Origin: Candidatus Daviesbacteria bacterium
GTDB taxonomy: Bacteria > Patescibacteriota > Microgenomatia > Daviesbacterales > UBA10151
Assembly (NCBI GenBank): GCA_028715175.1
Contig: JAQUSJ010000001.1
Location: forward strand, 674,386 to 738,385
Length of the DNA stretch: 64,000 nucleotides
Direction: 5' to 3'
Translations under genes and position numbers: made by a program
Shown here: one piece after another, positions 2,521-60,900 of the stretch
How the letters are laid out: every line of letters begins with the position of its first letter
Position numbering within the stretch: position 1 is the stretch's first letter
Notes under the pieces: generated by a model
The model's database searches: none
The model's input: only the letters and a program-made list of their open reading frames with translations
What the model was told of the DNA's origin: nothing

Positions 2521-3414
2521 CTATAAATCTATTATTTTTGCTAGAAAATTTTTATCGCTAATTAGGGCAAAGTTTTGGTCCTTAGGTAGGTGTGGTATAT
2601 TATGAAAGTAAATTCTTTTAATATTATTAATATATTGAGTTATTAAAGAAGCTACGTTTCTACGAATCATCACACCCCCTCTAGTTTTTATTCCATCGAT
2701 AATAATGATTTCAACCTTTTGAAATTTTTCGTGTAACTCTATGGGGTCTATAACATCAATATCAATGATCAATTCCTTAAACTCTTCCATATGCGGCGGT
2801 ATAATGTGGTCCGTATTAATAATCTGACCTTCGCGAAGGAATTCTAAAAAATTTAAAAATAGGTGAGGAGGAAGCGGTAACAAAACCAGTGCATTTTCAT
2901 TATAGGTCAAGTCCAGTAATAATTGTTTCTTAGTCTGCAAATTGTATATTTCTTCTTCTATAAACAAAAGGATTAAACTCTGTTTAATGGACAGGTTGTT
3001 TTCTTTAACGATTTTACTAAGCATTCTATGAAGTTTTTCATAATTTTCTTCCTGCAAAAATGAGAATATTTCTTCGGCCTCAATTGCATCTCCCAGAAGA
3101 GCTTCAAGAGTTTCTGCTTCAATTGAACTTAAGCCTGGTATTATGTATTTAACATGCTTTGACCTTGGGATATCTAGACCTTTAGATTCTTTTACAAGAG
3201 GCTTAACCGGAGTCGTTTCTTTGGAAATCTTGACAGTACTATCACCACCGTTTGGTATCTTCAAATACTTATCAACTTCTTCTTCGGATATTCTAATACT
3301 ATTACCAACTCTTACTGATTTTAATAATCCCTCCTTAATCTGTCGTCTTACCGTAGAAGTAGAAACATTTAACTTTTTTGAAACCTGCTTGATGCTGTAT
3401 AAATTATCCTGCAT
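2521..3414 (-). CDS. DNA-binding protein with N-terminal excisionase/MerR-type HTH fused to a domain of unknown function
   Basis: N-terminus YSIKQVSKKLNVSTSTVRRQIKEGLLKSVRVGNSIRISEEEVDKYL is a classic HTH_17/Xis-family helix-turn-helix. The C-terminal ~230 aa are unassigned. Co-directional with and abutting the permease. Confidence 0.55.
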   Translation of the reverse strand: MQDNLYSIKQVSKKLNVSTSTVRRQIKEGLLKSVRVGNSIRISEEEVDKYLKIPNGGDSTVKISKETTPVKPLVKESKGLDIPRSKHVKYIIPGLSSIEAETLEALLGDAIEAEEIFSFLQEENYEKLHRMLSKIVKENNLSIKQSLILLFIEEEIYNLQTKKQLLLDLTYNENALVLLPLPPHLFLNFLEFLREGQIINTDHIIPPHMEEFKELIIDIDVIDPIELHEKFQKVEIIIIDGIKTRGGVMIRRNVASLITQYINNIKRIYFHNIPHLPKDQNFALISDKNFLAKIIDL

Positions 3415-3503
3415 ATATTTGACTACAGTTGATACGGATATAATCTATCTTAGTCAACTTTATTCAAAAGTATCATAGATTAAAATGAAAGTCAAGCACG
3501 AAT

Positions 3504-3791
3504 ATGAGCCTAAAAAGTCTATATATAGACAATCTTATCGTTCGTTTTTGGCGAGAATTGTCATATATGGCGTATTATTTCACTGCCAAACAACGTAAGA
3601 AAATAGGTAATAGCCTAAAAAGAATTAGGAAGAAAAAAGAGTTAAAACAAGTTGAGGTAGCAGTAGAAGCAGGGATAAATACAAGTTATTACAGTAAAAT
3701 TGAAAGAGGCGAGGTAAATCCATCTTTAGAAAAAATTTATCGGATAATTAAAGCCCTTAAAATCCAATCTTCTAATATACTACCTTTCTAA
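3504..3791 (+). CDS. XRE-family helix-turn-helix transcriptional regulator
   Basis: …LKRIRKKKELKQVEVAVEAGINTSYYSKIERGEVNPSLEKIYRIIKALKI is a Cro/C1-type HTH. The true start may be the internal Met (MAYYF…). Divergent from 2521..3414. Confidence 0.6.
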   Translation: MSLKSLYIDNLIVRFWRELSYMAYYFTAKQRKKIGNSLKRIRKKKELKQVEVAVEAGINTSYYSKIERGEVNPSLEKIYRIIKALKIQSSNILPF

Positions 3792-4545: not shown

Positions 4546-4938
4546 TTAATTCTTAATTTGATGGGCAATAATGGGGACTGCTTCAATTCTTTTAAATCTT
4601 TTTTCATGATCAGTAGTAGTTTTATCTACTTCACTTGCAAATTCCATAATGGTATCAACCTTGGTATTTAGTTCATCTATCTTTCTTCCTAGATTAATAC
4701 CTAAATCTGCTATCTTCCTTCCCAATCTGCTATCAACTTCGTCTATCCTGCTATCAACTTCGTCTATCCTGCTATCAACTTCGTCTATCCTGCTATCAAG
4801 CCTACTCTCAAGCCCTTTTAGATCCTGCTTAGTAGCTAATCCTTTGAGATCTTTCTTAGTAACTAAAGACTTACTTAGTCTGGATGCTAGTTTAGCGATA
4901 TCTTCATCGTTCATAGATTGATAGTAAGACAAGCACAT
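4546..4938 (-). CDS. hypothetical coiled-coil protein with heptad tandem repeats (DSRIDEV x3)
   Basis: 130 aa. The repeat block is encoded by a 21-bp unit x3 at 4741..4803. Confidence 0.45.
   Translation of the reverse strand: MCLSYYQSMNDEDIAKLASRLSKSLVTKKDLKGLATKQDLKGLESRLDSRIDEVDSRIDEVDSRIDEVDSRLGRKIADLGINLGRKIDELNTKVDTIMEFASEVDKTTTDHEKRFKRIEAVPIIAHQIKN
4722..4803. repeat. 21-bp tandem repeat (GTCTATCCTGCTATCAACTTC) x3 plus a partial copy, in frame
   Basis: Read directly from the sequence; encodes the repeated DSRIDEV heptads. Confidence 0.8.
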
Positions 4939-4964: not shown

Positions 4965-7712
4965 TCAAAACTGTTCTAAAAACTTTTTAATTTTATCCCT
5001 ATCCCTTTTTAGCCACTCTGCATTTGAATAAATTTGCTCCAGGGCTTGGGCGACAGTCCTCTTGGCTTCCGGCACAGGGTTTTTGGCAATAAAGTTTTCA
5101 ATATCAGAAGCATCTGAAACTTTTGTAAAATTACCCATTGGCAAAAAGATTCTGGGGAAGATATGTCCTCCGGCATATCTTTCTTTCAAGAGTTCCCAGT
5201 TCCTTTTGACAAACTCCCAAGCCAAGTACCGGCCCGCAGGATTATTCCAGACTGCTGCTATAATTTGCAATGAATTCTGGAACCTGACATGTTTGGAAAT
5301 GGCAAAATCCAAAGTCTTAGAAAGAAAAGTTTCGCTCTTAAATTTACCCAAAGCCCGACCAATTCTATCTTTCTCCTGCTGGTTATCTTCTTCTTTATAC
5401 ATCGCCATCAAAGTATCAAACTCTGTCTTTCCCCCATTTTCTGCTGCCAGATTATAGACAACACTCCGGAGATCCGGATCAATACTTTTGTCATTCTGAG
5501 GAGTCTTCGACGAAGAATCTCTCAACTTGTTTGAGATGTTACTGACATTCGTCAGAGATCCTTCACTACGCTCAGGATGACACAAAGAGGAAAATAGTTC
5601 CTGTGCTTTTTGGATTATCCCTTTATCACCAAAGGATCCCAATTTATACAAAACCAAACCACGAAGTAGTAAATCTGTATGTTTTTCCCCAGCCTTTTTC
5701 TGCCAGCCCATTTCTTTAACAATACTGCTAAAAATCTGCCTCCCGTAACTTCTAAAATTTTCGTAAAAAGGCTCATAGGCTAAAAGTGAATCTAACTCAC
5801 TCAAATGCTCTGTCAACACGCTCCAGACAGTGTAATCTTCTTCCGTTGCAAAAGATAAAGCCAGTTCTAAAGCCAAGCTCGTCGGCGAATCTCCGGACTT
5901 TGCCAGATCAAATGAGTCCCTAATCAAGCCTAACCTATCCGGTGCAGACAGTTTTCCATCTTTGATTGCCTCTTCCAGTCTTTTAAGATATTGCTGCGGA
6001 TAATCCACTCTGACTAAGGATGCTTCTCCTGCATTTAATTTAATCCATTCATTATCTTTAAGCCCTGGAAAGGTGATTGACTTTTTATCCATTAATAACC
6101 AGTTGTCATTGTGAGGATCCGGCGAAGCCGGAGACGAAGCAATCCGCCACGGCGGATCGCCACGCTTCGCTCGCGATGACATTATTTGTACTGGTATTGA
6201 CCAAACAGCATTATCTTTAGTTTCTTTTTTAGATATTGGACTTCCGAAGAATCTGGATTGAGTTAGCTGTAACCTGTTACCTGTAACCTGTAACCTTATC
6301 ACCGGATGACCTGGTTTTTGGGTCCAGTTCCTCATCAACTCTGCAACCGGTTTTTTAGACACCTCTGTTAAAGCTAGCCACAAATCTTCAGTCTTCGCAT
6401 TGCCATATGAGTGCTTCTTTAAATAATGTTGCAGCCCTTTTTGAAAAACTGCCGGTCCGAGATATGACATAAGCATGCGCAGAACCGATGCTCCTTTTGA
6501 ATAGCTAACCTTGTCAAAAATCTCGGAAATCTCTGCCGGATTACCAACTTCTACTTCAATCGGGTGGGTATTTTTCAAAGCATCCAAAGAGTAAGCAACT
6601 CCCATCTCCTCTGCCACAAATTGAGTCCAGATATCCCACTCAGGGAAAATATGATCTATAGCCAGATATTCAATGAATGAGGCAAACCCCTCATTAAGCC
6701 ATAAATGAGTCCACCACTCCATGGTTACCAAATCACCAAACCACATGTGGGCCAGTTCATGTGCAATCACCAAAGCTACCCATTGTTTATTGGCCGTGGA
6801 AGATCTTTCCTCATCAATCAAAAGCGTTGATTCACGGTAAGTAACAGCTCCCCAGTTCTCCATTGCTCCTGCGGCAAAATCAGGAATGGCTATCATATCC
6901 AACACCGGCAATGGATAGTCTATATCAAAATAGCCTTCGTAAAAATCCAGGCATTTCCTGGCTACATCCAAAGCAAACCTTGCTTGCTCTTTTTTTCCTT
7001 CAGTTGTAAAGACCCTTACCACTTTTCCCTTATCACTTTTCCCTTCCACATATTCAAACTCCCCCACAATAAAGGCCAAAAGATAGGTGGACATTTTGGG
7101 GGTGGGAGCAAATTCCACCATCTGATAACCGGATTCATGTTCTTTAACCACAGTTTCAATCGTATTTGATATGGCTGTGGTACCAGTTGGAATCATTAAA
7201 GTCACATCAAAAATAGCTTTCTGGGAAGGCTCATCAAAACAGGGAAAAGCCCGTCTGGCATCAGTTGATTCAAATTGGGTGGTAGCCAAATGTTTAGAAA
7301 TCCCCGCCATCTCGTATCGGGAACGGTAAAAACCTCTCATTTTATCGTTTAGGATTCCTTTAAAAATAAGTTTTAGCTTGCCTTTGCCCTTTTGGATTTG
7401 TTCTGGAAAAGTAAAAGTGGCTGTTTCCATTTCCTTGTTATACGAGATCTTTCCAGCCCAAATCTCTCTGTTGCCATGAATGAACTCAGCACTTTCTATT
7501 TCCAGTTCAATAGCATGGAGGGTAATTTGTTTAGTCGGCTTTTCCAGAGAGAGAAAAATTGTTTCCTCTCCGGTAAAGGTAAATTCATTCAAATCAGGCT
7601 TGAGCATGATTTTATAAGGAAATCTTGAAAACTCTCTTGAAAGGTTTACTTTCAAGCTTAGCTTATAACGCTCGGGCTTAACATGAGCCGAGAGCCTGAC
7701 ATTCTTTTTCAT
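4965..7712 (-). CDS. pepN: aminopeptidase N (M1 family zinc metallopeptidase), carrying in-frame repeat insertions
   Basis: GAMEN motif (AAGAMENWGAV) and HELAHMWFGDLVTMEWWTHLWLNEGFA (HEXXH-18-E). 915 aa. Contains palindromic element copies and a heptamer array (see repeats). Confidence 0.9.
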   Translation of the reverse strand: MKKNVRLSAHVKPERYKLSLKVNLSREFSRFPYKIMLKPDLNEFTFTGEETIFLSLEKPTKQITLHAIELEIESAEFIHGNREIWAGKISYNKEMETATFTFPEQIQKGKGKLKLIFKGILNDKMRGFYRSRYEMAGISKHLATTQFESTDARRAFPCFDEPSQKAIFDVTLMIPTGTTAISNTIETVVKEHESGYQMVEFAPTPKMSTYLLAFIVGEFEYVEGKSDKGKVVRVFTTEGKKEQARFALDVARKCLDFYEGYFDIDYPLPVLDMIAIPDFAAGAMENWGAVTYRESTLLIDEERSSTANKQWVALVIAHELAHMWFGDLVTMEWWTHLWLNEGFASFIEYLAIDHIFPEWDIWTQFVAEEMGVAYSLDALKNTHPIEVEVGNPAEISEIFDKVSYSKGASVLRMLMSYLGPAVFQKGLQHYLKKHSYGNAKTEDLWLALTEVSKKPVAELMRNWTQKPGHPVIRLQVTGNRLQLTQSRFFGSPISKKETKDNAVWSIPVQIMSSRAKRGDPPWRIASSPASPDPHNDNWLLMDKKSITFPGLKDNEWIKLNAGEASLVRVDYPQQYLKRLEEAIKDGKLSAPDRLGLIRDSFDLAKSGDSPTSLALELALSFATEEDYTVWSVLTEHLSELDSLLAYEPFYENFRSYGRQIFSSIVKEMGWQKKAGEKHTDLLLRGLVLYKLGSFGDKGIIQKAQELFSSLCHPERSEGSLTNVSNISNKLRDSSSKTPQNDKSIDPDLRSVVYNLAAENGGKTEFDTLMAMYKEEDNQQEKDRIGRALGKFKSETFLSKTLDFAISKHVRFQNSLQIIAAVWNNPAGRYLAWEFVKRNWELLKERYAGGHIFPRIFLPMGNFTKVSDASDIENFIAKNPVPEAKRTVAQALEQIYSNAEWLKRDRDKIKKFLEQF
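5489..5582. repeat. Family-A palindromic element, composite inverted pair (TGTCATTCTGAGG…GAAGAATCTC // GAGATCCTTCACTACGCTCAGGATGACA), in frame in pepN
   Basis: Read directly. Translated as …[30 protein letters not shown]… within pepN. Confidence 0.75.
6105..6182. repeat. Family-A palindromic element, second composite copy in pepN (GTCATTGTGAGGATCCGGCGAAGCC … GGATCGCCACGCTTCGCTCGCGATGAC)
   Basis: Read directly. Encodes …SRAKRGDPPWRIASSPASPDPHND… in frame. Confidence 0.75.
6267..6294. repeat. heptamer tandem array CTGTAAC x4 (one variant unit), in frame in pepN
   Basis: Read directly; encodes RLQVTGNRLQLTQ. Confidence 0.8.
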
Positions 7713-9211: not shown

Positions 9212-9261
9212 AAAATATTTCCTGTCATTCTAAGGCGATTAGCCAAAGAATCTCTTGATTC

Positions 9262-9310
9262 CGTGAAGATCTTTCGCTACGCTCAGGATGATTTTGCAAG
9301 CAAAATCACC
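9262..9310. repeat. Family-A element copy (…GATCTTTCGCTACGCTCAGGATGAT + TTTGCAAGCAAAATCA palindrome) at the 3' end of the metallo-hydrolase gene
   Basis: Read directly. The element encodes the last residues …QVILLAKSS and supplies the TGA stop. Confidence 0.7.
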
Positions 9311-9942
9311 TGTGGTTTCTCCGGCAATCTGTCTTTGGTTATTGAGAGCTTGGGCTGAGAAACTACTCCTTCTGTTCCCATTTCTTTCAAAAAGCCTTCA
9401 ATTCCTTCAAGCTCAAATTTGACTCCTTCTAATTTGTAATGCATTGGGATAATAATTTTTGGTTCAAGTTGGGAAACAATATCCGAAGCCTCCTTAGCAT
9501 TGATCGTATAAATACCCCCAACAGGAATAAGCACAATATCTGTTTGACCGATCGCTGCAACTTGTTCCTCTGTTAACCTGGATTGCCCCAAATCCCCCAG
9601 GTGAACAATATCCAAACCGTCAAACAGTAAATGAAAAATGGTATTCGATCCTTTTTCGCTGCCTTCCGAGCGATCATGAAAAGAATTTAACCCTGTTATT
9701 ACAACCCCCAAAACTTCATATTCTCCGGGTTTACTAAAAACCATGGGAGCACTCCCTTGCAACGCTGTAACTGCGGAAATAAAGTTGTGATCTTTATGTT
9801 CATGAGTTGTTAAAACTACGTCGGCTTGCAAATCCCGAGGCAGTTTCAATCCTGTAAAGTCCGGGTCATACGGGTCAATCACTACAGTTGCATTTTTACC
9901 TTTTAATTTAAAACAGGATTGTCCATACCAGTAGATATCCAT
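9283..9942 (-). CDS. metal-dependent hydrolase, metallo-beta-lactamase fold (UPF0173-like)
   Basis: MDIYWYGQSCFKLKGKNATVVIDPYDP…LTTHEHKDHN… Start re-set to the internal Met at 9942; the long N-terminal extension in the ORF track is implausible. Confidence 0.7.
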   Translation of the reverse strand: MDIYWYGQSCFKLKGKNATVVIDPYDPDFTGLKLPRDLQADVVLTTHEHKDHNFISAVTALQGSAPMVFSKPGEYEVLGVVITGLNSFHDRSEGSEKGSNTIFHLLFDGLDIVHLGDLGQSRLTEEQVAAIGQTDIVLIPVGGIYTINAKEASDIVSQLEPKIIIPMHYKLEGVKFELEGIEGFLKEMGTEGVVSQPKLSITKDRLPEKPQVILLAKSS

Positions 9943-10459
9943 GGCAAGTTGCATACTAACAAATATGCTAAAATTGTTCAATAAGCGAAGTTTTAAAACG
10001 GAGCTTACAAACTTGTTTATAATGATGCAACTTAATCGAAAACTCACTACAAAACATCTTATTCTTTCCCAGATTCTAATCTTGATCATAGGTTTAACAT
10101 TTCTGGGAACACTTTATTTCATTTTAAATATCCAATATCAAAAACCTAAAAACCTTTTCTTGGTTGGACCGGTTACTACTCTTCCCAAAAGCTTACTGCT
10201 GGATCTTGGGACGCCTGACCAGGATACCTTATCTTTTTCATCTTCAATAATTGTGTCCGGCAAAACAGGACCAAAAAAGGACGTCTTAATCTCAACTGAT
10301 ACCCGCGACCTTGTAATCCAATCAAAAGCAGACGGCTCCTTTTCTACGGTTTTGAATTTAGATGAAGGCGTTAATACAATCAAAGTCGTTGTTTTTGATA
10401 CAACAGGTGAGGCAAGGTCTGCTGAACGTACAGTTTACTTCTCAAAGGAGAAAATATGA
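9941..10459 (+). CDS. hypothetical membrane-anchored protein
   Basis: A TM helix (ILSQILILIIGLTFLGTLYFIL) followed by a soluble domain. Overlaps the next gene by ATGATGA. The true start may be downstream (MMQLNRK). Confidence 0.4.
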   Translation: MASCILTNMLKLFNKRSFKTELTNLFIMMQLNRKLTTKHLILSQILILIIGLTFLGTLYFILNIQYQKPKNLFLVGPVTTLPKSLLLDLGTPDQDTLSFSSSIIVSGKTGPKKDVLISTDTRDLVIQSKADGSFSTVLNLDEGVNTIKVVVFDTTGEARSAERTVYFSKEKI

Positions 10460-14285: not shown

Positions 14286-15251
14286 TTGTCATCGAGGGGT
14301 ATAATAATAATCAATCCTATGAATAATTATATAGAGGAACAGATAAATAAATTAGATAAACAAATCGAGGAGATCAAACCACTTCTGCAGGATCCTGAAA
14401 TGGCTGATCTGGCCAAGGGAGAAATTAAAGATCTAGAACAGCAAAAAGCAGAATTAGAGTCATCAGCTTTCAGCTTTCAGTCGTCAGAAAATTCAGAAAG
14501 TCTGACAGCTGACAGCGAAGCGATACTGAAGACTGACAGCTGTATTCTAGAAATCAGGAGTGCTGCCGGAGGCGACGAGGCCGGACTTTTTGCCGGTGAT
14601 TTATTGCGGATGTACACAAGATTTGCTCAAAATAAAGGGTGGAAAGTTGAAGAATTAGACCGGTCTGAAGGAAAACTGGGGCAAGTGAAAGAAATTGTAC
14701 TCAAACTTTCAGGTAAGGGTTCATACAGCCATCTTAAATATGAATCCGGTGTTCACCGGGTACAAAGAGTACCCGTTACAGAATCCTCGGGTAGAATTCA
14801 CACCTCAACAGCCACAGTAGCAGTGCTCCCTGAAATTACCGATGCTCAAGTTACCATAAATCCCTCTGATATAGCATTTGAAGCTTTCCGCTCCGGTGGT
14901 GCTGGCGGCCAAAATGTTAATAAGGTTTCTACTGCCGTAAGGCTTACTCATATCCCAACCGGAATCATTGTAACCTGTCAAACCGAGAGATCACAACTCC
15001 AAAATAGAGAAAATGCCCTAAGTCTCCTTCGATCTAAGCTTTGGGAGGCAGAACAACAAAAAAAGACTGGCAAAGTTATGGAACAAAGAGCTGTTCAAGT
15101 AGGATCTGGTATGAGATCGGAGAAAATTAGAACATATAATTTTCCTCAAAACAGAGTAACCGATCATAGAATCAACAAATCATGGCATAATCTGGACAAT
15201 ATATTAGAGGGGGATCTGGATGACATCATCAAAGCCATATCAGTATGTTAA
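14286..15251 (+). CDS. prfA: peptide chain release factor 1
   Basis: [18 protein letters not shown] (PxT tripeptide region, RF1-type) and GGQ motif ([27 protein letters not shown]). The start may be the Met at 14319. Confidence 0.9.
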
Positions 15252-15909
15252 AGGTTACACTGAATTTTACAAACTAAGATTCAAGGTTACACCCGATACT
15301 TTAATACCCCGCCCTGAAACAGAACTTTTAGTAGACGAAGTACTGCGCTTTGTTTCCCAACTACAACCTACAACCTACAACCTACAACCTATTACCATCC
15401 TCGATCTTGGAACCGGTGCCGGTAATATAGCTATTTCTGTTGCCAGGAATGCTCCTGATATAAAAATCATCGCTACTGATATATCTGTTGCTGCCTTAAG
15501 AATAGCCAAATATAATGCTAAACGCCATGGCGTAGAAGACAAAATAGAATTTATCCAAAGCGATTTACTTTCTGGTTTAAACTATACCCTACACCCTAAA
15601 CCCCATACCCTAATCATTGTTACAAACCTCCCTTATATCCCAACTGAGCGAATTCCTTATCTTGACTCATCTGTGAAAGATTTCGAACCGCACGTTGCTT
15701 TAGACGGCGGGGAAGACGGTTTTGAACTTTATAGAAAATTATTTAGTCAAATTAAAGAAAAATCCTGGCAGCCAAAATTAATCATCGGAGAAATTGACTA
15801 TACTCACGGCGAACTGGCGGTAAATGAATCTCAAAAATATTTTCCCTATTCGCAAATTGAAACTAAAAAAGACCTGGCTCACAAACAGAGAATATTACTG
15901 ATTAGTTAA
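15220..15909 (+). CDS. prmC: release-factor glutamine N5-methyltransferase (PrmC/HemK), N-terminally short
   Basis: IPRPETE motif, SAM-binding LGTGAGNIA and catalytic NLPY (NPPY variant). Overlaps the prfA 3' end. Contains a heptamer array. Confidence 0.8.
15361..15390. repeat. heptamer tandem array CTACAAC x4, in frame in prmC
   Basis: Read directly; encodes [13 protein letters not shown]. Confidence 0.8.
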
Positions 15910-21428: not shown

Positions 21429-22553
21429 TTAATTGCTAACCAAAAATTCAACCACATCCCCATCCTTAACCTCATAATCTTTTCCTTCAGTCCTAACCCA
21501 CCCTTTGGCCTTAGCTTCTGTATATGATCCAGCTTCTATCAATTTATCATAAGAGATAACCTGGGCCCTGATAAAATTTTTCTCAAAATCGCTGTGGATT
21601 ACCCCTGCTGCTTGGGGAGCTTTTGTTCCTCTCTTTATAGTCCAAGCCCTGACTTCTTTCGGACCGGCAGTTAAAAAAGAAATTAGGCCTAAAAGGTCAT
21701 AGGCTTTGACAATTAATCTTTCCAAACCTGTTTGATCAATCCCTAAAGTTCTTAAATATTCCAATCTTTCTTCTTCTGAATAATCAGCCAATTCTTCTTC
21801 CAATTTGGCAGAGATAACCATCTCATTCTGACCATTCCACCTCGGAGATGTAACTGCATTTTTTTCACCTCCGAGGTGTTCTGAAATTGCGCTTTCTGAA
21901 ACATTTAGAACATATAGCGTTGGTTTAATAGTCAGAAGTGGCAGGCGATCAAACCAATCCTGAAGTCTGTCATCTGCTATCTGGTATTTCCCAAGATTTC
22001 TCCCTTGATTCAACTCCTCTTTTATCTGATTTAAAATCTCTGCTTTCTGACTTGCTAGTGGATCCATTTCCTGTTTACCCGCCGAAGCTTTAGCGAAGGA
22101 GGGGGCAGCTATTAATTTTTCCAGAGTTTGAAGATCTGCCAATCCTAATTCTGTTTCCACTACCAATTTATCTGAGTCTGGATTTTCCGCTCCAGCCCGT
22201 ACCACATTTTCATCCTGAAAATCCCGCAGAACATGAATTATGGCATCCACTTCTCTAATGTGAGATAAAAACTGGTTACCCAAACCGGCTCCGGTTGAAG
22301 CACCTTTTACTAATCCGGCAATATCTACAAATTCCACCACAGCCGGAACAACAGGAGGTTTTTTTGACACCTCAGCCACCAGATCGGCCAGCTTGTTTAG
22401 CCTCTCATCAGGTACTGCCACCACCCCCACATTTGGTTCAACTGTGGCAAAAGGATAATTGGCAGAAAGAGCCACTCTTTTTTTCAAAAGAGCATTGAAC
22501 AAAGTACTTTTCCCAACATTTGGTAATCCAACTATCCCGACTTTTAAAGACAT
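21429..22553 (-). CDS. ychF: ribosome-binding ATPase YchF (Obg-like GTPase family) with in-frame palindromic insertion
   Basis: MSLKVGIVGLPNVGKSTLFNAL… G-domain, coiled-coil insert, C-terminal TGS domain. Family-B element at 21837..21878. Confidence 0.9.
   Translation of the reverse strand: MSLKVGIVGLPNVGKSTLFNALLKKRVALSANYPFATVEPNVGVVAVPDERLNKLADLVAEVSKKPPVVPAVVEFVDIAGLVKGASTGAGLGNQFLSHIREVDAIIHVLRDFQDENVVRAGAENPDSDKLVVETELGLADLQTLEKLIAAPSFAKASAGKQEMDPLASQKAEILNQIKEELNQGRNLGKYQIADDRLQDWFDRLPLLTIKPTLYVLNVSESAISEHLGGEKNAVTSPRWNGQNEMVISAKLEEELADYSEEERLEYLRTLGIDQTGLERLIVKAYDLLGLISFLTAGPKEVRAWTIKRGTKAPQAAGVIHSDFEKNFIRAQVISYDKLIEAGSYTEAKAKGWVRTEGKDYEVKDGDVVEFLVSN
21837..21878. repeat. Family-B palindromic element (CCACCTCGGAG-N19-CACCTCCGAGGTG), in frame in ychF
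   Basis: Read directly; encodes …SEHLGGEKNAVTSPRWNGQ…. Confidence 0.75.
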
Positions 22554-38198: not shown

Positions 38199-39179
38199 TT
38201 AAATTATATCACGTAAATTATCCATAATTCTAAGGTTAACATTTTTTGTCATATCCGGAATAAACCTTTTACCAGTTATTTTTTCATAAATCCCCATGTA
38301 AAGCCTGCTCATTTTGGCAATAAAACTTGGGGGCATCTTGGGGATTTTTCCTTTGCCAGTATATCCATGCTCTTTAAACCAAATCCTAAGAGGCTCTTTG
38401 TCATAGCTTTCCGGCTCCAACCCTTTTTTAAATTTTTCATTGTAAGTTTTCTTGACCCAATATCTTGAGGAATCAGGTGTATGAAGTTCATCAACCAGCA
38501 TCAGTTCCCCTTCATTATCAAAACCAAATTCATATTTTGTATCAACTAAAATTATACCGGCCTTATCACAAATCTTTTGTCCTCTTGCAAACAAAGCCAA
38601 GGCTGCAGTTTCCATCTGTTTCCATATCGCCGGTGTCACAATTTTTCTTTGTATGATATCTTTTTCGCTTAATTTTTCATCGTGATGTCCTGATTTGGCT
38701 TTAGTGGTAGGAGTAATTACAGGTTTTGGCAACTTTTGGTTTTTTCTTAAACCTTCTGGAAATTTAATGCCGTAAATTACTCTTTCTCCTTTTTCATAAG
38801 ACCCCCAAATTGATGTATCTGTCACACCGGTGATATAACCTCGAACGACCATTTCAACAGGAATAACCTGGCAATTCTTAACTACCATTACATTTGGATC
38901 CGGCACACAAAGTAAGTGGTTTTGAATAATATCAGAAGTTTTATTAAACCAAAAAGCTGAAAGCTGATTAAGGACTTGCCCTTTAAATGGAATATAACCT
39001 AGGACATGATCAAAAGCAGATTGCCGGTCAGTGGTAATGATCACTCTTTTATCATCTAATTCATAACTGTCCCGGACTTTACCGCTATATTTCTTCCCCA
39101 AATTCGGGATATCAACTGTTTTAAGTACATGAGCGATGTTTTCTATAATTATTCTTTTAGCAACCATATCTTGCGTCAT
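38199..39179 (-). CDS. purC: phosphoribosylaminoimidazole-succinocarboxamide synthase (SAICAR synthetase, long form)
   Basis: …GKVRDSYELDDKRVIITTDRQSAFD… 326 aa. The ATG overlaps the purE stop as ATGA. Confidence 0.9.
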   Translation of the reverse strand: MTQDMVAKRIIIENIAHVLKTVDIPNLGKKYSGKVRDSYELDDKRVIITTDRQSAFDHVLGYIPFKGQVLNQLSAFWFNKTSDIIQNHLLCVPDPNVMVVKNCQVIPVEMVVRGYITGVTDTSIWGSYEKGERVIYGIKFPEGLRKNQKLPKPVITPTTKAKSGHHDEKLSEKDIIQRKIVTPAIWKQMETAALALFARGQKICDKAGIILVDTKYEFGFDNEGELMLVDELHTPDSSRYWVKKTYNEKFKKGLEPESYDKEPLRIWFKEHGYTGKGKIPKMPPSFIAKMSRLYMGIYEKITGKRFIPDMTKNVNLRIMDNLRDII

Positions 39180-39206
39180 TGCGAGGAGTGTAGCGACGTG
39201 GCAATC
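39174..39206. repeat. Family-A element copy (CGTCATTGCGAGGAGTGTAGCGACGTGGCAATC) spanning the purE/purC junction
   Basis: Read directly. Encodes the purE C-terminal …IATSLHSSQ, its TGA stop and the overlapping purC ATG. Confidence 0.75.
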
Positions 39207-41088: not shown

Positions 41089-42617
41089 CAGTGTCTAAAT
41101 GCTCTCCTTCCTGAGAATATCATAGGGATTCCTGCTTCATTTGCCGCTTCAATTGACGCTTTGTCATTGACAGATCCGCCCTGCTCCAAAATTGCTCCGA
41201 TGCCAAACTTTGCTGCCAACTCTACCGAGTCTTGAAACGGAAAAAAACTATCACTTATCAGCATACCACCTTTGGCAAAATCCTTGGCCTGCTCCAGCGC
41301 AATCCTTGTTGCACCAATCCTGGATGTTTGCCCGGAACCAATGCCCCGCGTCATCGGGATATCCTTATCAATTACCAAAACTGCATTAGATCGCACAGCT
41401 TTAACACATTTAAAACCAAATCTAATCTGTTCGAGCTGTTTTTGAGTTGGTTTTTTCTTGGTCACCACTTTCCAGTATTTAAAACTTTCTTCAACATTAT
41501 CATCAAAATCCTGCAAAAGCACAGATCCTCCAAAATATTTCAGATCCCATTTTTCGCTTCTTGTTTTTGGAATTTCGCCAAAAGTATAAACTCCCATACT
41601 TTTTCTAACCTTTTTTAAAAGTTCCAACGCATCGTCTGTTACAAAAGGAACTGCCACAATATCAATATTTTCTTCCCTCTCGTTTTTGAAAGTAGCTACA
41701 TTTTTGGCTGCTTTTAAATCCATAGGTTTGTTTGTCACTATCACTCCGCCAAAAGCAGAAACCGGATCTGCTTCTATTGCAAAATAAAGTGCTTGATGAA
41801 CATCTTTACCTGTGGCAATTCCGCAAGGGCTTAAATGTTTTATCACGCAAGCCGCCGGCTCTTTAAATTGCCTGACAGCTTCCAGACCCGCATAAATATC
41901 TCCAGTGTTTGTGCCGGAAAGTTCCCTTCCCCAAAGATGTTTTAATTTCGCAATTGGAGAATTTGTTTTTGGCATATTGTATAGGGCACCTTCCTGGTGA
42001 GGATTTTCTCCATAGCGCAATACATTTGTTTTCCTAAGAGGAAGAGTTAATTCTTTAGGAAACTTTTCTTTGGAAAAAAACTTGCCGATTTGGCTGTCGT
42101 AAAATGACAGATGATAAAAAGCTTTTGCAGCCAATTCTTCCCTTAACTGCTTTGTGACTTTATTTTTTTGTAAGTTATCCAACACCAATTCATAATCATC
42201 AGGACTGACCACCACTAAAACATTTGCATTATTTTTAGCAGCTGCCCTAATCATGGTCGGTCCCCCTACATCTATTGTCTCAATACTAGGCCTATCCTCA
42301 AATGGATAAAGGTTGCAAACCACAATATCTATTTGCGGAACAACCAGTTCTTTTGCCTGTTTAGCATGAGCGGGATTTTGCCGGTCAAATAATATACCGG
42401 ACTCAATTTGAAAACTTATGGTTTTCATCCTACCGTCAAATGAATCCCTGGGGTTGCCCGTAATTTCATCAATAAGTGTAACTTTTATTCCGTTTTCTTT
42501 TAATACACTAGATGTACCGCCGGTAGAAATAATTTCATAACCCAAACCAAGAAGTACCTTGGCAAAATCAGCGATTCCTGTTTTATCATAAACACTAAGT
42601 AGCGCATATTTTTTCAT
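41088..42617 (-). CDS. purH: bifunctional AICAR transformylase / IMP cyclohydrolase
   Basis: MGS-like N-terminus MKKYALLSVYDKTGIADFAKVLLGLGYEIISTGGTS… plus the AICARFT domain. 509 aa. Confidence 0.9.
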   Translation of the reverse strand: MKKYALLSVYDKTGIADFAKVLLGLGYEIISTGGTSSVLKENGIKVTLIDEITGNPRDSFDGRMKTISFQIESGILFDRQNPAHAKQAKELVVPQIDIVVCNLYPFEDRPSIETIDVGGPTMIRAAAKNNANVLVVVSPDDYELVLDNLQKNKVTKQLREELAAKAFYHLSFYDSQIGKFFSKEKFPKELTLPLRKTNVLRYGENPHQEGALYNMPKTNSPIAKLKHLWGRELSGTNTGDIYAGLEAVRQFKEPAACVIKHLSPCGIATGKDVHQALYFAIEADPVSAFGGVIVTNKPMDLKAAKNVATFKNEREENIDIVAVPFVTDDALELLKKVRKSMGVYTFGEIPKTRSEKWDLKYFGGSVLLQDFDDNVEESFKYWKVVTKKKPTQKQLEQIRFGFKCVKAVRSNAVLVIDKDIPMTRGIGSGQTSRIGATRIALEQAKDFAKGGMLISDSFFPFQDSVELAAKFGIGAILEQGGSVNDKASIEAANEAGIPMIFSGRRAFRH

Positions 42618-43708
42618 GTTAAAACCTTTTTGAGTTCCCCTTTCTCTAAAGCTTCTTTTATTTCCATTGCTACTCTTTTTCCCATACTTAAATTTTGCCC
42701 GTATAAATACATACCATAAGGTGTAGCAAAGATACCAGGACTGCCGGGCATTCTCGGGGAAACATCAAACACAATTATTTCTTTTTTAGGAGGACCGGCA
42801 GTGATCATGGTTTGCAAACCGAATGGACCTATGACACCAGGTTTATATAATTTTTGGGTAGTTGCTACAAATCTTTCCCCCATATCAAATGCGTCTTCAA
42901 GAAGCGATTCCAAAACAGTTACGGCAATGTGTCCTGCTTCTTCGTATTTTACCTGTAAGCGACCTGCCTTCTCTAACTCCTCTTGTACTATGGCTGGACT
43001 ATGTACAACACCTTCTAGATTAGTTTGCCTTCTTGTGTCTGTTCCTATCAATTCCAATCTATCATTTAATGGGTCATAAAAGAAATTGAAGTTTACCTGT
43101 ACTCCCAAAAGAAATTCTTCAATAACAGCATTTTCTAAATTAGCTTTAGAGATAATACCCTTTTGTAAAAGAAAATCGCTCTTCTTAGTGTAAACTTCAT
43201 ATGAGTCGCATAGGAAGAACGAGCGTTCAAATCCTCTCGTCTTTTCCAAGACTTTAACAATACAAAGTCGGTCTATATCTTTAGGATTTTTAAATTGTTT
43301 GGGATATCTAATATTTGCAGCATCCAGCAAGTCATACTGATTCGGTTTAACTCCTCTTTCTTCGGCTTTCAGTAGAAATCTATTTCCAAACATCGGCACT
43401 TTAAATTTTTTCTCAATGGCATTGTAATCATTTATGTAAACCTCAAAAGACCGATGAGGCACAAATATGCAATTTCTTTTTAACAGCTGCTTTTGAACTT
43501 CCGGTTTTAAAACATCAGCAAATTTGTCTAACTCGATTACTTCATCAATGCAACCGAGCATACCTTGGCTTTTATAATATTTTACATAAGTTTTATCCCG
43601 ACCCTTTTGAACAATAACTAAAGTTTTAAACCCTAAATCCTTTGCACCACGGCATACATCCAAAGCGGAGTGTGAACCTAATACAGCAATGGTGTATTGT
43701 TTATTCAT
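42614..43708 (-). CDS. purP: archaeal-type ATP-grasp FAICAR synthetase paralog (PurP family)
   Basis: MNKQYTIAVLGSHSALDVCRGAKDLGFKTLVI…PHRSFEVY…MFGNR…GPFGLQ… is a PurP-like architecture (my recall of Methanocaldococcus PurP). More divergent than its neighbour. Confidence 0.65.
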   Translation of the reverse strand: MNKQYTIAVLGSHSALDVCRGAKDLGFKTLVIVQKGRDKTYVKYYKSQGMLGCIDEVIELDKFADVLKPEVQKQLLKRNCIFVPHRSFEVYINDYNAIEKKFKVPMFGNRFLLKAEERGVKPNQYDLLDAANIRYPKQFKNPKDIDRLCIVKVLEKTRGFERSFFLCDSYEVYTKKSDFLLQKGIISKANLENAVIEEFLLGVQVNFNFFYDPLNDRLELIGTDTRRQTNLEGVVHSPAIVQEELEKAGRLQVKYEEAGHIAVTVLESLLEDAFDMGERFVATTQKLYKPGVIGPFGLQTMITAGPPKKEIIVFDVSPRMPGSPGIFATPYGMYLYGQNLSMGKRVAMEIKEALEKGELKKVLT

Positions 43709-44720
43709 CCAAAACTTCCTTTAGTCTATTCTGCTCTATAGCATTCTTTATCTCTCTTGCAATACGTCTTCCTGTTGACATTGGCTCTTCATAATTTAAA
43801 TACGTGTATGGGGAACCGTCAATAAAACAATTTGTTCCTGCCACAATTCGGGCAGAAATTTCGATTACATAAATCTCTTCTGTCGAGGTAATGATTGTCT
43901 CCAAACAAAATGGCCCAAAAAGCCCTTTTGCTGGCATCAATTTCTGAGATGTCTCAACCACCCTTTCTGCCATTGAGATTGCCTCGGGAAGTAGTGATTC
44001 TCTAATTGCCATAGGAATATTGGCAACTACTTCAAAAGACGGTTCTATATTTAAACCTCTTTGGTTTTTTGCAGGAATACGGCCTAGCGAGTCAACATTT
44101 GTTTCATATCGTTTGTCCAAACTCATCATCTCCACCTTTTTCGTTAAAGGCGAATAAAAGAAATGAAAATAAACAGGCACTCCGATAACATATTCCTGAA
44201 CCATAAACTTCTGTTCGCTGAAACTAATTAATTTGGTATCAAACTCTTTTTGATTTCTGGCAGTGAAATAACCCTTGCCTCCTGCCGCCCCGTATGATTT
44301 AACGATAACCGGACGGTCTATTTTATCTCCTCTTTTGAAAAGATGAGGAACTTTTATTCTTGCTTTCTCCATCCACTTCCTTTGCATTTTGCGGTTTTCT
44401 TCCCAATCCAAAACTTTCTTATTGCCAAAATATAAAGTCTTCATACTTTTATTATTGTCCATACCTAAATAGGCCACAAATGAGCCATGTGGAATTATGA
44501 TGGCATTTCTTTTTAGAAGTTCTTTTTCTAACTTAAGAAAATCGCTCCATCTATCAATTTCTAAAATCTCATCAATAAAATTACCGTAAGATTTATAAAG
44601 CGGAATTCTGTCTTTAGTGGAAACTACTGCAGTTTTAAAGCCTTCATCTTTTGCCCCTTTGAGGATTTGCAGGGCGGAGTGAGAACCTAAAGTTACAATT
44701 GTATGGTTTATGATTCCCAT
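43701..44720 (-). CDS. purP: 5-formaminoimidazole-4-carboxamide ribonucleotide (FAICAR) synthetase, archaeal-type PurP
   Basis: MGIINHTIVTLGSHSALQILKGAKDEGFKT…IIPHGSFVAY…YFGNKK…YFHFFYSPL…DKRYETN…GRIPAKNQ…NIPMAIRESLLP…GPFCLE… Near-colinear similarity to archaeal PurP over the full length. Confidence 0.8.
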   Translation of the reverse strand: MGIINHTIVTLGSHSALQILKGAKDEGFKTAVVSTKDRIPLYKSYGNFIDEILEIDRWSDFLKLEKELLKRNAIIIPHGSFVAYLGMDNNKSMKTLYFGNKKVLDWEENRKMQRKWMEKARIKVPHLFKRGDKIDRPVIVKSYGAAGGKGYFTARNQKEFDTKLISFSEQKFMVQEYVIGVPVYFHFFYSPLTKKVEMMSLDKRYETNVDSLGRIPAKNQRGLNIEPSFEVVANIPMAIRESLLPEAISMAERVVETSQKLMPAKGLFGPFCLETIITSTEEIYVIEISARIVAGTNCFIDGSPYTYLNYEEPMSTGRRIAREIKNAIEQNRLKEVLDE

Positions 44721-44795: not shown

Positions 44796-46205
<1,410 letters not shown>

Positions 46206-46206
46206 T

Positions 46207-47805
46207 TTATTCCCATTCCATAGTGGCCGGGGGTTTGTTGGTGATATCGTAAACCACACGGTTTACTTCACGAACTTCATTTACAATTCTTGTTGAAATT
46301 TTTTCTAAAAGATCAAAAGGAAGTTTAGCAAAATTGGCAGACATGGCATCTTGGGCTTCAATGGCTCGAATAGCAATTGTTTCCCCATACGCTCTTTCGT
46401 CTCCTCTGACTCCTGTTGTTTTAATTCCTGTAAAAATTGCAAATACTTGCCAAAGATTTTTAGCTAAATCAGTTTTTTCAATTTCCTGCTGAATAATTTT
46501 ATCTGCTTTTCTTAAAATTTCTAATTTCTTTTCAGTAATTTCACCAATAATTCTTACTGCCAATCCCGGTCCTGGAAAAGGTTGTCTATTTAAAATTTGC
46601 TCAGGCAATCCCAAAATCTTCCCAATTTTCCTGACTTCATCTTTATAAAAATTCCTTAAGGGTTCTATTAAAACAAGATTCATTTTTTTAGGTAAAGCCC
46701 CGACATTATGATGTGATTTAATCACTCGTGCATGTTTGGTGCCGGCACTTTCTATCACATCAGGATAAATGGTACCTTGGACCAAAAATTTTGCTCCACT
46801 TTCTTTAGCTAATCTTTCAAAAACCTCAATAAAAATTTTGCCTATTACTTTTCTTTTTTGTTCAGGATCTGCTACCTCTTTTAATGCTTTTAAGAATTCT
46901 TTTTTTGCATCTATAATTTTTATATCCATATTGTAATGTTTGGCAAAAACCCCTCTTAAGGTATCTGTCTCACCATCTCTCATCAATCCCGAATCTATGT
47001 AATAACAAGTTAAATTTTTACCAATGGCTTTATAAACTAAAAGAGCAGCTACCGAAGAATCCACCCCGCCAGACAGTGCGCATATTGCTTTTTCTCTTCC
47101 TACAGAATCTTTAATATCGGAAATTATATTTTCTACAAATTTTTCATCTATTGTTGATCTTTTGGGATTTAATCCGCAGATCTTTAAAAAATTTTCCAAA
47201 ATTTCTGTTCCAAATTCCGTATGCATAACTTCGGGATGAAACTGTATTCCATATATTTTTTTATTTTTATTTTCCACAACAGCATGAGGAATTGTTTTTG
47301 TAGTAGCAATTGTCTCAAAATTCTCTGGTATTTTAACGACCTCATCACCATGACTCATCCAAACCGTGATACCACTTGGAACTGTGGATAATAAATTAGA
47401 AGATTTTTTTATAGTAAGTTCTGCCGGACCATATTCTTTTTTATACCCTGGTTTAACTTCGCCACCCAAAAGCTGACACATTAACTGTTGTCCGTAACAA
47501 ATACCTAAAATTGGAATACCTAACTCAAATATTTTTTTGTCAATTGTCGGCGCGCCTTTTTCATAATCGCTTGCGATTATATCGCGACGCTTCTTGTAAC
47601 GCGGTGCGTTATAAACAGATGCTGGCCCTCCTGAAAATATTATTCCTTTTACTTTCTTGTCATTCTGGAGCCCTTCGCTACGCTCGAGGGTAAACTCCGC
47701 GATAGAATCTTCCGGTGCAACAATTTCACAATCCACCCCCAACTCTCTTATTCTTCTCCCAATCAAATGCGCTGTTTGCGATCCAAAATCAACTAAGACA
47801 ATCAC
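46207..47805 (-). CDS. guaA: GMP synthase (glutamine-hydrolysing), with in-frame palindromic insertions in the GATase domain
   Basis: MIVLVDFGSQTAHLIGRRIRELG…, GICYGQQ (catalytic Cys), SGGVDSS PP-loop, C-terminal …PPATMEWE. Confidence 0.9.
   Translation of the reverse strand: MIVLVDFGSQTAHLIGRRIRELGVDCEIVAPEDSIAEFTLERSEGLQNDKKVKGIIFSGGPASVYNAPRYKKRRDIIASDYEKGAPTIDKKIFELGIPILGICYGQQLMCQLLGGEVKPGYKKEYGPAELTIKKSSNLLSTVPSGITVWMSHGDEVVKIPENFETIATTKTIPHAVVENKNKKIYGIQFHPEVMHTEFGTEILENFLKICGLNPKRSTIDEKFVENIISDIKDSVGREKAICALSGGVDSSVAALLVYKAIGKNLTCYYIDSGLMRDGETDTLRGVFAKHYNMDIKIIDAKKEFLKALKEVADPEQKRKVIGKIFIEVFERLAKESGAKFLVQGTIYPDVIESAGTKHARVIKSHHNVGALPKKMNLVLIEPLRNFYKDEVRKIGKILGLPEQILNRQPFPGPGLAVRIIGEITEKKLEILRKADKIIQQEIEKTDLAKNLWQVFAIFTGIKTTGVRGDERAYGETIAIRAIEAQDAMSANFAKLPFDLLEKISTRIVNEVREVNRVVYDITNKPPATMEWE
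47564..47611. repeat. cluster of small GC-rich palindromes (ATAATCGCTTGCGATTAT; AACGCGGTGCGTT) in frame in guaA
   Basis: Read directly. Encodes …NAPRYKKRRDIIASDYEK…, not expected in the GATase domain. Confidence 0.6.
47658..47709. repeat. Family-A element copy in frame in guaA (TGTCATTCTGGAGCCCTTCGCTACGCTCGAGGGTAAACTCCGCGATAGAATC)
   Basis: Read directly; encodes …SIAEFTLERSEGLQNDKK…. Confidence 0.7.
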
Positions 47806-51466: not shown

Positions 51467-51470
51467 TTTT

Positions 51471-52802: not shown

Positions 52803-52803
52803 A

Positions 52804-53403
52804 TTAGTTACATAGTTTTGCTAAAATATCCACATATAACTTATTCTCTTTAACTTTTAATCTTTTATATAAAGATTCCACGGTGTCTTCTGGCTTAATC
52901 TTCTCAAAGCATCTACCTAGAACCGGCCCAAAGTCAAATTCATGAGATAGAAGATGATTTGTACATCCGGCATAAGTGGCATGATTATCAAGAAATTTTT
53001 GAATCGCCTCATCAGTCATTTTCTTCCTATTCCATAAAGCAAGTGTCCCATCGGGGCTTCTGACAACGCCACTCATTGTATCCGGTATTAACCCGGGGTG
53101 AGTATTTAAAATTCTGTTAGAGAATGCGTCAATGACCTCATCTAAAATAATCTGTTTCCAACCTGCAAGACAAATATAATCAGGATTTATTTTTTTCAAA
53201 AAGGGTAACAAATTCTTTTTTCTTGACAATATTTTAATTGGTAACTTATGTTTTCTTGCCCTCTTAAGACCCAGTGCTCCAGGAGTATCGCTGACAACTA
53301 CCGCAATCTTAGCATTAATCTTTCCCTGTTTTATCCCGTCAATAATTGCTTGAAGATTCGTTCCTGTGCCGGTATTGGATATCAAAATAGCAATTCTTTT
53401 CAT
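52804..53403 (-). CDS. purN: phosphoribosylglycinamide formyltransferase
   Basis: MKRIAILISNTGTGTNLQAIIDGIKQGKINAKIAVVVSDTPGALGLKRARKHKLP… 199 aa. Confidence 0.85.
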   Translation of the reverse strand: MKRIAILISNTGTGTNLQAIIDGIKQGKINAKIAVVVSDTPGALGLKRARKHKLPIKILSRKKNLLPFLKKINPDYICLAGWKQIILDEVIDAFSNRILNTHPGLIPDTMSGVVRSPDGTLALWNRKKMTDEAIQKFLDNHATYAGCTNHLLSHEFDFGPVLGRCFEKIKPEDTVESLYKRLKVKENKLYVDILAKLCN

Positions 53404-54809: not shown

Positions 54810-54871
54810 AGTTTAATATAACTATTTTGGCCTCGAAAGTCAAGTGTCTCACAAAATGGTATACTTAAATC

Positions 54872-57664: not shown

Positions 57665-57679
57665 TAATTTTTAAGTTTA

Positions 57680-59080: not shown

Positions 59081-59086
59081 TCCTTC

Positions 59087-59491: not shown

Positions 59492-59508
59492 GAATACATT
59501 CTAGCATA

Positions 59509-60105: not shown

Positions 60106-60156
60106 TTCGAAGCCAATTTTACCAAGTATATTGTATTATGTATAGTGTATATAGGG

Positions 60157-60528: not shown

Positions 60529-60567
60529 CCCAATATACTTTATACTCTATACGCTATACTAATTTGG

Positions 60568-60846: not shown

Positions 60847-60900
60847 AATTAGTTATTGGTTGGTAGTTATGAGTTCGTAGTGATTTATTATTTTTTCTAT

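Follow-up and report, generated by a model that had tools for sequence, protein, structure and literature searches.

The pepN gene of a Candidatus Daviesbacteria bacterium (Patescibacteriota) carries, in frame within its open reading frame (ORF), two composite palindromic elements, each built from two opposed copies of a short hairpin-forming unit. The gene lies in a stretch of 64,000 nucleotides (assembly GCA_028715175.1, contig JAQUSJ010000001.1, positions 674,386 to 738,385), which is the window to which coordinates refer here (Table 1). Its product is 100% identical to the NCBI entry 'M1 family aminopeptidase [Candidatus Daviesbacteria bacterium]' and contains the Pfam domains PF17900, PF01433 and PF11838. 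Human puromycin-sensitive aminopeptidase (PSA, 8sw0) is its best relative in the PDB (E=2.9e-231). Orthologues of PepN in Daviesbacteria range in length from ~800 to 925 aa. In their alignment the HExxH and E341 columns are invariant, and the catalytic HExxH...E is intact. PepN is most likely an active enzyme, predicted from its sequence to carry two extra disordered peptides.

Both elements run from TGTCAT to ATGACA, with the GTCAT ends of their two units pointing outward. An initial annotation, made from the sequence alone, had placed two palindromes of two inverted unit copies at these positions and had quoted their in-frame translations; both the palindromes and the peptides were recovered. 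Element 1 is read as CHPERSEGS...KTPQND, and its spacer forms two small hairpins. Element 2 is read as (M)SSRAKRGDPPWRIASSPASPDPHND, where SSRAKRGDPPWRIASSPASPDPHND corresponds to aa 512-536; its inner hairpins are CCGGC-GAA-GCCGG in the left unit (6105-6144) and a GCGAAGC mini-hairpin in the right unit (6155-6180). The segments had also been described as GC-rich against AT-rich surroundings. This holds for element 2 (0.58-0.62, compared with ~0.38-0.40 around it), but in element 1 it applies to the arms only, the overall value being ~0.42. When composites were folded as single-stranded DNA (ssDNA), three dimers gave z scores of -2.7, -3.1 and -5.65, the last belonging to the best-folding copy, upstream of purA (-20.4 kcal/mol).

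In a 114-sequence alignment of PepN, both segments occupy columns that most sequences lack. Locus L002, which shares the dnaB-pepN-efp gene order, is empty at sites A and B, as are many further orthologues (P00xx series). The closest relative, the likewise syntenic L001, is empty at site A and has at site B a different dimer, with TGC/GCA stems and read in another frame. Aligned to PSA 8sw0, PepN shows a break at exactly 708/743 and a gap at site A. An AlphaFold2 model of PepN (mean predicted local distance difference test score, pLDDT, 80.8; predicted template modelling score 0.84) falls below a pLDDT of 50, in stretches of 7-12 and 24 residues, at residues 519-534, between β-strands 506-512 and 538-541, and at residues 718-741, between helices 697-711 and 746-758. 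The remaining stretches below 50 are the N-terminus and three 3-residue segments (148-150, 161-163 and 280-282). Because the low-confidence stretches coincide with the inserts, the latter lie in loops dispensable to the fold. Alignments and model together indicate that both pepN segments are insertions, situated in loops predicted to be disordered. The lineage-specific origin proposed for them initially is borne out, in that orthologues have no common peptides at these positions, but either empty sites or different variants of the element.

A third insertion in pepN (~7617-7667, aa 16-32) is found only in this genome. It is 51 nt long, encodes YKLSLKVNLSREFSRFP and holds an AT-rich hairpin (CTTGAAAG-gttta-CTTTCAAG); pLDDT is below 50 at aa 15-31. 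It partly repeats the YKIMLKPDL that follows and may be a diverged duplication. At 6262-6296 (aa ~473-484) there is a short tandem repeat, GTTAGCTGTAACCT / GTTACCTGTAACCT / GTAACCT, which encodes ..RLQVTGNRLQLTQ.. at a position of length variation among PepN orthologues. Between efp and pepN lies a coiled-coil ORF of 130 aa (4546-4938, minus strand) with three tandem copies of DSRIDEV, for which Pfam gave only weak, sub-threshold matches (DUF7310).

The repeat unit and its copies in the window

The anatomy of the unit was read from 38 distinct copies, some in the window and others in 80 related pepN loci. These have the form Y-GTC / AT-NNN / GAG / variable GC-rich mini-hairpin / CGA(A) or CGTG / NNN-AT / C(TCT). 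The unit thus consists of an unpaired YGTC head, a 5-bp stem opening with A-T and T-A, a conserved GAG//CGA(A) internal loop, a variable GC-rich mini-hairpin and a C(TCT) tail. The inner stem has 2-6 bp and its loop 3-5 nt, and the mini-hairpin is often GCGAAGC or GCGTAGC, sometimes CCGGC-GAA-GCCGG or CCCC-GAA-GGGG. GCGAAGC is an exceptionally stable DNA mini-hairpin, and a GAG//CGA loop is able to form tandem sheared G·A pairs beside a G-C pair; the minimal form of the unit reaches nine 'pairs' only when two G·A pairs are counted. Composites are made of two units with their heads outward, usually with unlike stems, and measure 70-100 nt.

GTC is fixed in all 38 units; before it stands T in 26 of them, C in 11 and A in one. 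Every window unit has the form GTC-AT...AT-C, a feature that was partly selected for, as the search patterns demanded AT. The tail opens with C and continues as TCT in 12 of the 38 units; it is not CCA. Of 346 units from viral contigs (among the matches listed), 71% have T and 17% have C ahead of GTC, and in the tail of viral-contig units, likewise among the matches listed, the base after the opening C is T in 59% and the one after that C in 47%.

The three N positions of the stem were left unconstrained in the search pattern, and are fully paired in 36 of the 38 units. Five compensatory stem types occur (TGC/GCA, CCT/AGG, TCT/AGA, TCC/GGA and CGC/GCG). In a first set of 26 units, 24 were fully paired against 9.7 expected on shuffling of the partners (maximum 16 in 2000 shuffles). 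Because the free stem positions pair and covary, the hairpin of the unit is itself under constraint. MAFFT set the 3' stem of the TGC class one column out of register, and a structure-free regular expression was therefore used as the test instead of a covariance model.

The hairpins might also be read at the level of RNA, as a ribozyme or as a regulatory or processing hairpin in pepN mRNA, rather than as selfish DNA. The unit core CUGA.GAG...CGAA resembles hammerhead stem II with its tandem G·A pairs, G·T pairs are tolerated in the stems, and the left half of element 1 gives a weak match to the hammerhead-like RAGATH-1 (E=6.2). However, this match is at chance level (16.7 bits against a gathering threshold of 56.3) and concerns one copy only. 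Units point either way with respect to transcription and also form symmetric dimers; close relatives have gained and lost copies, and the ORF remains open through the elements. A role in RNA is regarded as extremely improbable. The hammerhead ribozyme was dropped as a candidate: in gathering mode Rfam found only tRNA in the window, and in E-value mode on 5450-6220 it returned matches at chance level.

In total, the window holds eleven units at seven places, four of which are dimers with their tags outward. All four are heterodimers and three couple a TCT unit with a CCT unit. A loose, structure-free pattern matched 8 units, where 0.14 are expected by chance. The 25-nt consensus proposed initially occurs exactly at 5557-5581 and with two mismatches at 9268-9292 and 44835-44859, against none expected from 100 shuffles. 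Related copies had been claimed at eight further places. Further copies do exist, but at five other places for this family, and the rest probably belong to other palindrome families.

Table 1. Coordinates of pepN, its two composite elements and the other copies of the repeat unit in the 64-kb window; the last row gives an example of the unit.
Feature	Position	Strand	Remarks
pepN, M1-family aminopeptidase, 915 aa, uninterrupted ORF	4965-7712	-	From the ORF list
Composite element 1, pepN site B (aa 711-741), inverted heterodimer, tags at outer ends	5489-5582 (94 nt)		Units 5490-5519 (+), TCT/AGA stem; 5557-5581 (-), CCT/AGG stem
Composite element 2, pepN site A (aa 511-536), inverted heterodimer	6104-6181 (78 nt)		Units 6105-6144 (+), TGT/GCA stem; 6155-6180 (-), CGC/GCG stem
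Short inverted dimer between MBL-fold gene and dnaB	9224-9292		TCT unit (+); degenerate CCT unit (-)
Solo unit, TGC/GCA stem, purE/purC junction	39175-39206	+	Pattern match
Inverted dimer upstream of purA	44835-44918		CCT unit (+); TCT unit (-)
Degenerate solo unit in guaA, in frame as DSIAEFTLERSEGLQND (aa 33-49)	47659-47709 (51 nt)	+	ATTCTGGAG... type as in locus L068; weakest assignment of the list
Solo unit, TGC/GCA stem, CCCC-GAA-GGGG inner hairpin, in cysS	58014-58045	-	
Example unit sequence, one strand			TGTCATCCTGAGCGTAGTGAAGGATCTCT

Six of the seven places overlap coding sequence, as the ORFs are called; most copies lie inside or overlap genes presumably because the compact genomes of Patescibacteria leave little intergenic room. 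The dimer between the MBL-fold gene and dnaB overlaps the 3' end of ORF 9283-10089 (minus strand), supplying its last codons and TGA stop. In L001 and L002 this spacer is empty, and the native C-terminus reads ...VVLNKS before the stop codon, as against ...ILLAKSS in the window. The solo unit at the purE/purC junction encodes the C-terminal tail of PurE (..KIATSLHSSQ, then stop), and its ATGAC forms the overlapping TGA stop and ATG start of purC; the Pfam AIRC domain of PurE stops at aa 149 of 168, and the next gene encodes SAICAR_synt. The Adenylsucc_synt profile begins only at aa 47 of ORF 44808-46205, and the dimer upstream of purA therefore most likely lies 5' of the true start. In GuaA, the GATase domain spans 206 residues over 188 profile positions. 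The cysS unit plus one tail base is 33 nt long; it lies between the parts encoding the catalytic and DALR domains and is read in frame as VIASPEGAWQS (aa 346-356). Copies that persist within genes are multiples of three in length, are free of stop codons and fall in loops predicted to be disordered.

Element 1 and the dimer upstream of purA align over their full length, including two spacer hairpins with compensatory changes and a common ...ATGACACAAAG end. Because the two align end to end, a composite of ~100 nt has been copied as a whole, and not the unit alone.

Palindromes of a second family, whose arms read CACCTC(G/C)GAGGTG, are found in frame within ychF (YchF GTPase, 21838-21878, HLGGEKNAVTSPRW) and at two positions of purL, 48820-48856 (IHLGGVTSSHLRGG) and 51218-51251. 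Its arm also matches in 11 related pepN loci, and it is probably one of the other 'families' of the initial annotation.

Turnover and reuse of the same loops

L213 is a contig of the same metagenome-assembled genome (MAG) as L001 (GCA_028712705.1), and is collinear with positions 49143-64000 of the window at 87-95% nucleotide identity. The cysS unit is the only element common to the window and this MAG, and is identical at 33/33 nt in a gene that is 90% identical overall. At least six element sites are present in just one of the two genomes. Only GCA_028712705.1 has a dimer of 104 nt between cmk and an M16 peptidase gene, a junction at which stop and start codons overlap in the window and no element is present. 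It alone also has a dimer read in frame in dnaX, a solo unit in the folD-ybaB spacer, and further solo units. Confined to the window are the dimers at pepN site A and between the MBL-fold gene and dnaB. The cmk/M16 dimer (L213 12076-12179) is a CGC/TGC heterodimer like that at pepN site A, the left units being one base apart, whilst the spacer and one inner hairpin differ.

Because the same element is found at different loci, each of which is empty in the other genome, it can be regarded as a mobile repeat. The sequence comparison indicates that elements have been gained and lost recently and that they are active in the Daviesbacteria lineage. The suggestion that this is a mobile or proliferating element is thereby upheld, both by the excess of pattern matches over chance and by presence and absence differing between close relatives.

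The folD-ybaB spacer of the window (60858-60926) contains an AT-rich inverted repeat (GGTTGGTAGTTATGAGTTCGTAGT / ACTACGAACTATGAACTCTGAACC) that is unrelated to the unit. The flanks (GATAGAATCAGC ... TAATTATGGGAATAATGG) are identical in the window and in L213 (8357-8382), and L213 has its solo unit in exactly that slot. Between a DAGK gene and purF, L213 also has the toxin-antitoxin genes hicA/hicB and an ORF of 250 aa (14378-15679), which the window is without.

Mobility might be that of classical miniature inverted-repeat transposable elements; the 25-nt arms would then be the terminal inverted repeats of a decayed insertion sequence (IS), moved as double-stranded DNA by a DDE transposase. 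Such elements would have inverted ends, a length of 70-100 bp, a non-coding origin and a scattered distribution, as seen in the window. Nevertheless, a target-site duplication is absent at every copy and at the pairs of empty and filled sites, and a single arm can form a complete unit on its own (39175, 58014). The arms are hairpins in themselves and covary in a compensatory manner, the short unit recurs in conserved form in different phyla, and the window is without a transposase. This origin is very unlikely.

The loops occupied in PepN are also occupied elsewhere: of 114 orthologues, 15 have site A filled and 21 have site B filled. Fitch parsimony on a neighbour-joining tree gives 14 changes for site A and 17 for site B; the tree was unbootstrapped and the number of independent events is approximate. 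The occupants fall into subfamilies with the peptides HPERSEGS / HPERLAKDL, SLRGASATKQS...IASL..RND, HSGERSDSRI...SGQARMT and the canonical VIPAKAGI...RIKSGMT. All three reading frames are represented among them, and they begin 10, 11 or 16 nt past a conserved ELF codon. Because subfamilies, frames and insertion points differ, the occupants are not all one inherited insertion. Further positions in PepN (aa ~226-229 and ~475-478) are occupied in a few sequences. In CysS, the native loop IRDW-DEP-KIGCAE is replaced by various solo or dimer variants in at least nine orthologues.

Recurrence at the same loops is attributed mainly to a selection filter. The PepN and CysS loops would be filled repeatedly because only stop-free multiples of three, in which the TGA of ATGAC is out of frame, survive, and only in tolerant loops. 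It might be argued instead that the insertion machinery prefers certain targets by their local DNA sequence or structure. Independent insertion points at pepN site B cluster within ~6 nt, an insertion site lies just upstream of a palindromic GATCCGGATC encoding DPDL, and the intergenic folD/ybaB slot has been reused by two different palindrome families. However, the 12 nt upstream of the 346 viral-contig units (again among the matches listed) contain no conserved motif beyond Y at -1 and a weak C at -2, and site A, site B and the CysS site have no obvious sequence in common. All three are low-confidence loops or interdomain positions, as the selection filter alone predicts. Target preference is thought an unlikely cause of the reuse, and selective survival is retained as the main one.

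Kinship with CGTC-tagged repeats and proposed route of spread

Di Nocera, De Gregorio and Rocco (2013; PMC3733652) sorted prokaryotic repetitive extragenic palindromes (REPs) into GTAG- and CGTC-tagged superfamilies. Repeats of the CGTC type have the tag CGTC, often TGTC, a stem opening with complementary A and T, and a short tail with the consensus CCA. They mostly form inverted dimers, often heterodimers, with structured spacers, and some are intragenic, adding 20-30 residues to the protein. There is no dedicated transposase. CGTC-1 corresponds to dRS3 of Neisseria and to Rickettsia palindromic element (RPE) 6 of R. conorii, and CGTC-4 to RPE-4; the intragenic R. conorii copies tabulated in that study include VIPAKAGI, DSRFRGND and CHSRESGNP.

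The window units resemble this superfamily in the YGTC tag, the AT-first stem, the inverted dimers with tags outward, often of unlike units and with structured spacers, the in-gene copies and the compensatory subfamilies, and also in that no transposase was found with them. Moreover, the peptides VIPAKAGI and DSRFRGND are present at the same PepN loops in other Daviesbacteria orthologues. The pepN elements were initially likened to RPEs in their behaviour, and their family was not recognised. The likeness goes beyond analogy, as the YGTC tag and AT-first stem are those of a superfamily that has been equated with RPE-4 and RPE-6 (PMC3733652); the family, unfamiliar as it was, is a structural variant of a known superfamily and not unrelated to it.

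A second link is provided by the small GIY-YIG protein SsnA, which binds the hairpins of NTS and of the Ssn-related motifs (SRMs) and cleaves them in single-stranded form immediately 5' of the head (Chenal et al. 2025; PMC11893778). It offers a plausible class of enzyme. According to that study, ssn genes often have the motif on either side, in the manner of an IS (NTS-ssnA-NTS), and such pairs are widespread across bacteria. The NTS is an extended dRS3 (CGTCATTCCCGCGMAVGCGGGAATCYRG; CGTCATTCCCGCG...GGGAATC), and SRMs are oriented, multi-copy motifs of 20-50 nt found across phyla. Ssn is not known to transpose any SRM. The window units are like NTS/SRM in their HGTCAT head, hairpin and closing ...ATC. 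In Neisseria, however, the NTS is rarely intragenic (2%; PMC11893778), whereas six of the seven window places overlap coding sequence.

With respect to its features, the pepN pair fits a structural variant of the CGTC/TGTC-tagged REP superfamily (RPE-4/-6, dRS3/NTS, SRM) rather than a new kind of element. The Daviesbacteria variant would have been missed by the 2013 survey because that work dropped repeats with more than one stem mismatch; the survey covered five phyla, without Patescibacteria, Cyanobacteria or Acidobacteria (PMC3733652). In the literature searched, no description of CGTC/TGTC-tagged elements in Patescibacteria (the candidate phyla radiation) was found.

Ogata and colleagues reportedly described RPE-1 of Rickettsia as 'selfish DNA in protein-coding genes' that is inserted in frame, and located it in surface loops. 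The pepN elements are like RPE-1 in being palindromes of ~100 bp, in frame in a housekeeping gene and at positions predicted by modelling to be superficial, with the host gene intact. Unlike RPE-1, to which they have no sequence relationship, they are dimers of a 25-40-nt unit that is also found alone. In NCBIfam, curated RPE models included, neither inserted peptide of PepN has a match at E<=10.

The same architecture is found in REPINs, in which GTAG REPs form doublets mobilised by RAYT, a Y1 HUH transposase of the IS200/IS605 type. REPINs share with the window elements a hairpin with a tag, inverted doublets that are probably what replicates, high turnover between relatives and a presumed single-strand chemistry. 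However, the head is YGTC in place of GTAG, no Y1_Tnp-like ORF occurs among the 41 window ORFs, and no RAYT is flanked by CGTC units in any species (Di Nocera et al., PMC3733652). Mobilisation as strict REPINs is given little credence.

As a whole, the observations are probably best explained by selfish, non-autonomous REP dimers of the CGTC/TGTC-tagged type, which spread as ssDNA in trans and are filtered by selection, leaving PepN active. Units would spread as ssDNA hairpins, with a hairpin-specific nuclease or recombinase, putatively encoded elsewhere in the genome, acting in trans to cut and join them. By analogy, an Ssn-type GIY-YIG ssDNA nuclease would be the best candidate. Insertions would land widely, and selection would remove all but those in tolerant loops or intergenic slots.

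Several observations, in addition to the approximate count of independent events, weigh against this explanation. The units have a 5-bp stem, a GAG//CGA(A) loop and an inner hairpin, unlike the uninterrupted 8-9-bp stem and 4-5-nt loop of the published CGTC families, and their tail is C-TCT-like rather than CCA. The SRM pattern HGTCWYN(0-2)YYVSBRHN(0-5)WNVSBRGN(0-2)RNCYNB, which matches a canonical NTS control, has 0 matches in the window and finds 0/5 window units. The pairs of empty and filled sites show no target-site duplication and their boundaries are ragged by a few nucleotides, so that the insertion chemistry is unreadable from sequence. A Pfam scan of the 41 window ORFs, which represent a purine-biosynthesis cluster and housekeeping genes, revealed no transposase, integrase, HUH or GIY-YIG domain. 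Small single-domain GIY-YIG genes (cd10448), sought by motif regular expression, tblastn and hidden Markov model (built from 120 Microgenomates proteins and run on all ORFs of the loci), were found neither in the 64-kb window nor beside units in 2.5 Mb of loci; the only matches were in loci fetched for that protein, and in L018 and L051. GIY-YIG proteins of 79 aa are common in Microgenomates; the genes that were inspected adjoin tRNA genes and are not flanked by the window variant, one of them (L208) having an NTS-like dimer ~350 nt upstream.

In L204 (2200-2740), L208 (2090-2746) and L018 (98-600), a single-domain GIY-YIG gene of 79-81 aa lies directly downstream of a tRNA gene. The interval between the two is ~100 nt, bounded by a 15-nt inverted repeat (cactgatattcgttta ... 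taaacgaatatcagt). Many homologues are on very short contigs. The arrangement may be a separate mobile cassette.

The variant is not confined to Daviesbacteria. Near-perfect copies of a 30-nt unit consensus are found on plasmids of Gloeothece, Planktothrix, Nostoc, Hymenobacter, Phocaeicola and Granulicella, and the exact unit pattern occurs on at least 120 IMG/VR contigs. The GAG//CGA form is present in Patescibacteria, Cyanobacteria, Bacteroidota, Acidobacteriota and many viral contigs. Among the viral matches listed, pairs with tags outward are the commonest close arrangement, and 41 of 55 adjacent +/- unit pairs are <140 nt apart; the 62 ORFs with units on both sides are ordinary phage genes, with no recurrent nuclease. 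GenBank phages searched with the whole composite gave no match, and the one annotated plasmid match had nothing relevant nearby. On the Planktothrix agardhii plasmids NZ_LR882964.1 and NZ_LR882951.1 (H4, H5), near-perfect units lie under annotated MmeI-type restriction-modification and BREX PglX genes, which suggests that in-gene copies of the variant exist outside Patescibacteria too.

It is attractive to speculate that the GAG//CGA 'tandem G·A' form is a distinct cross-phylum class of ssDNA hairpins with its own cognate nuclease or recombinase. Such a class would be active now in Daviesbacteria, might be directed to DNA positions, and would repeatedly write disordered peptides into the same loops of essential enzymes. 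This proposal is tentative and, at present, rather doubtful.

Neighbouring features and wider meaning

The window contains a long cluster of genes for purine biosynthesis (purF, N, D, L, Q, guaA, purA, purH, purB, purE, purC and prs). Within it, on the minus strand at 42614-44720, are two adjacent paralogues with DUF1246, DUF1297 and ATP-grasp domains, which we take to be of the PurP type typical of archaea. At 2521-3791 there is a 297-aa protein with an N-terminal HTH_17/MerR (excisionase-like) domain, beside a divergent XRE-like ORF of 95 aa. No integrase is nearby, and the protein is absent from the syntenic stretch of L001.

The variant escapes the definitions of both CGTC families and SRMs, and surveys of these repeats and of Ssn-type targets are therefore probably incomplete. 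In MAG annotations such inserts inflate and diversify protein lengths, and peptides like VIPAKAGI should be recognised as repeat-derived. The two genomes, which are ~10% apart and differ by gains and losses, together with more than 100 orthologues, provide a natural experiment in which tolerance of insertion and target preference can be measured against each other. Collectively, the elements of pepN and its neighbours add the ultra-small Patescibacteria to the hosts of palindromic repeats that code for protein, for which Rickettsia is the best-known case.

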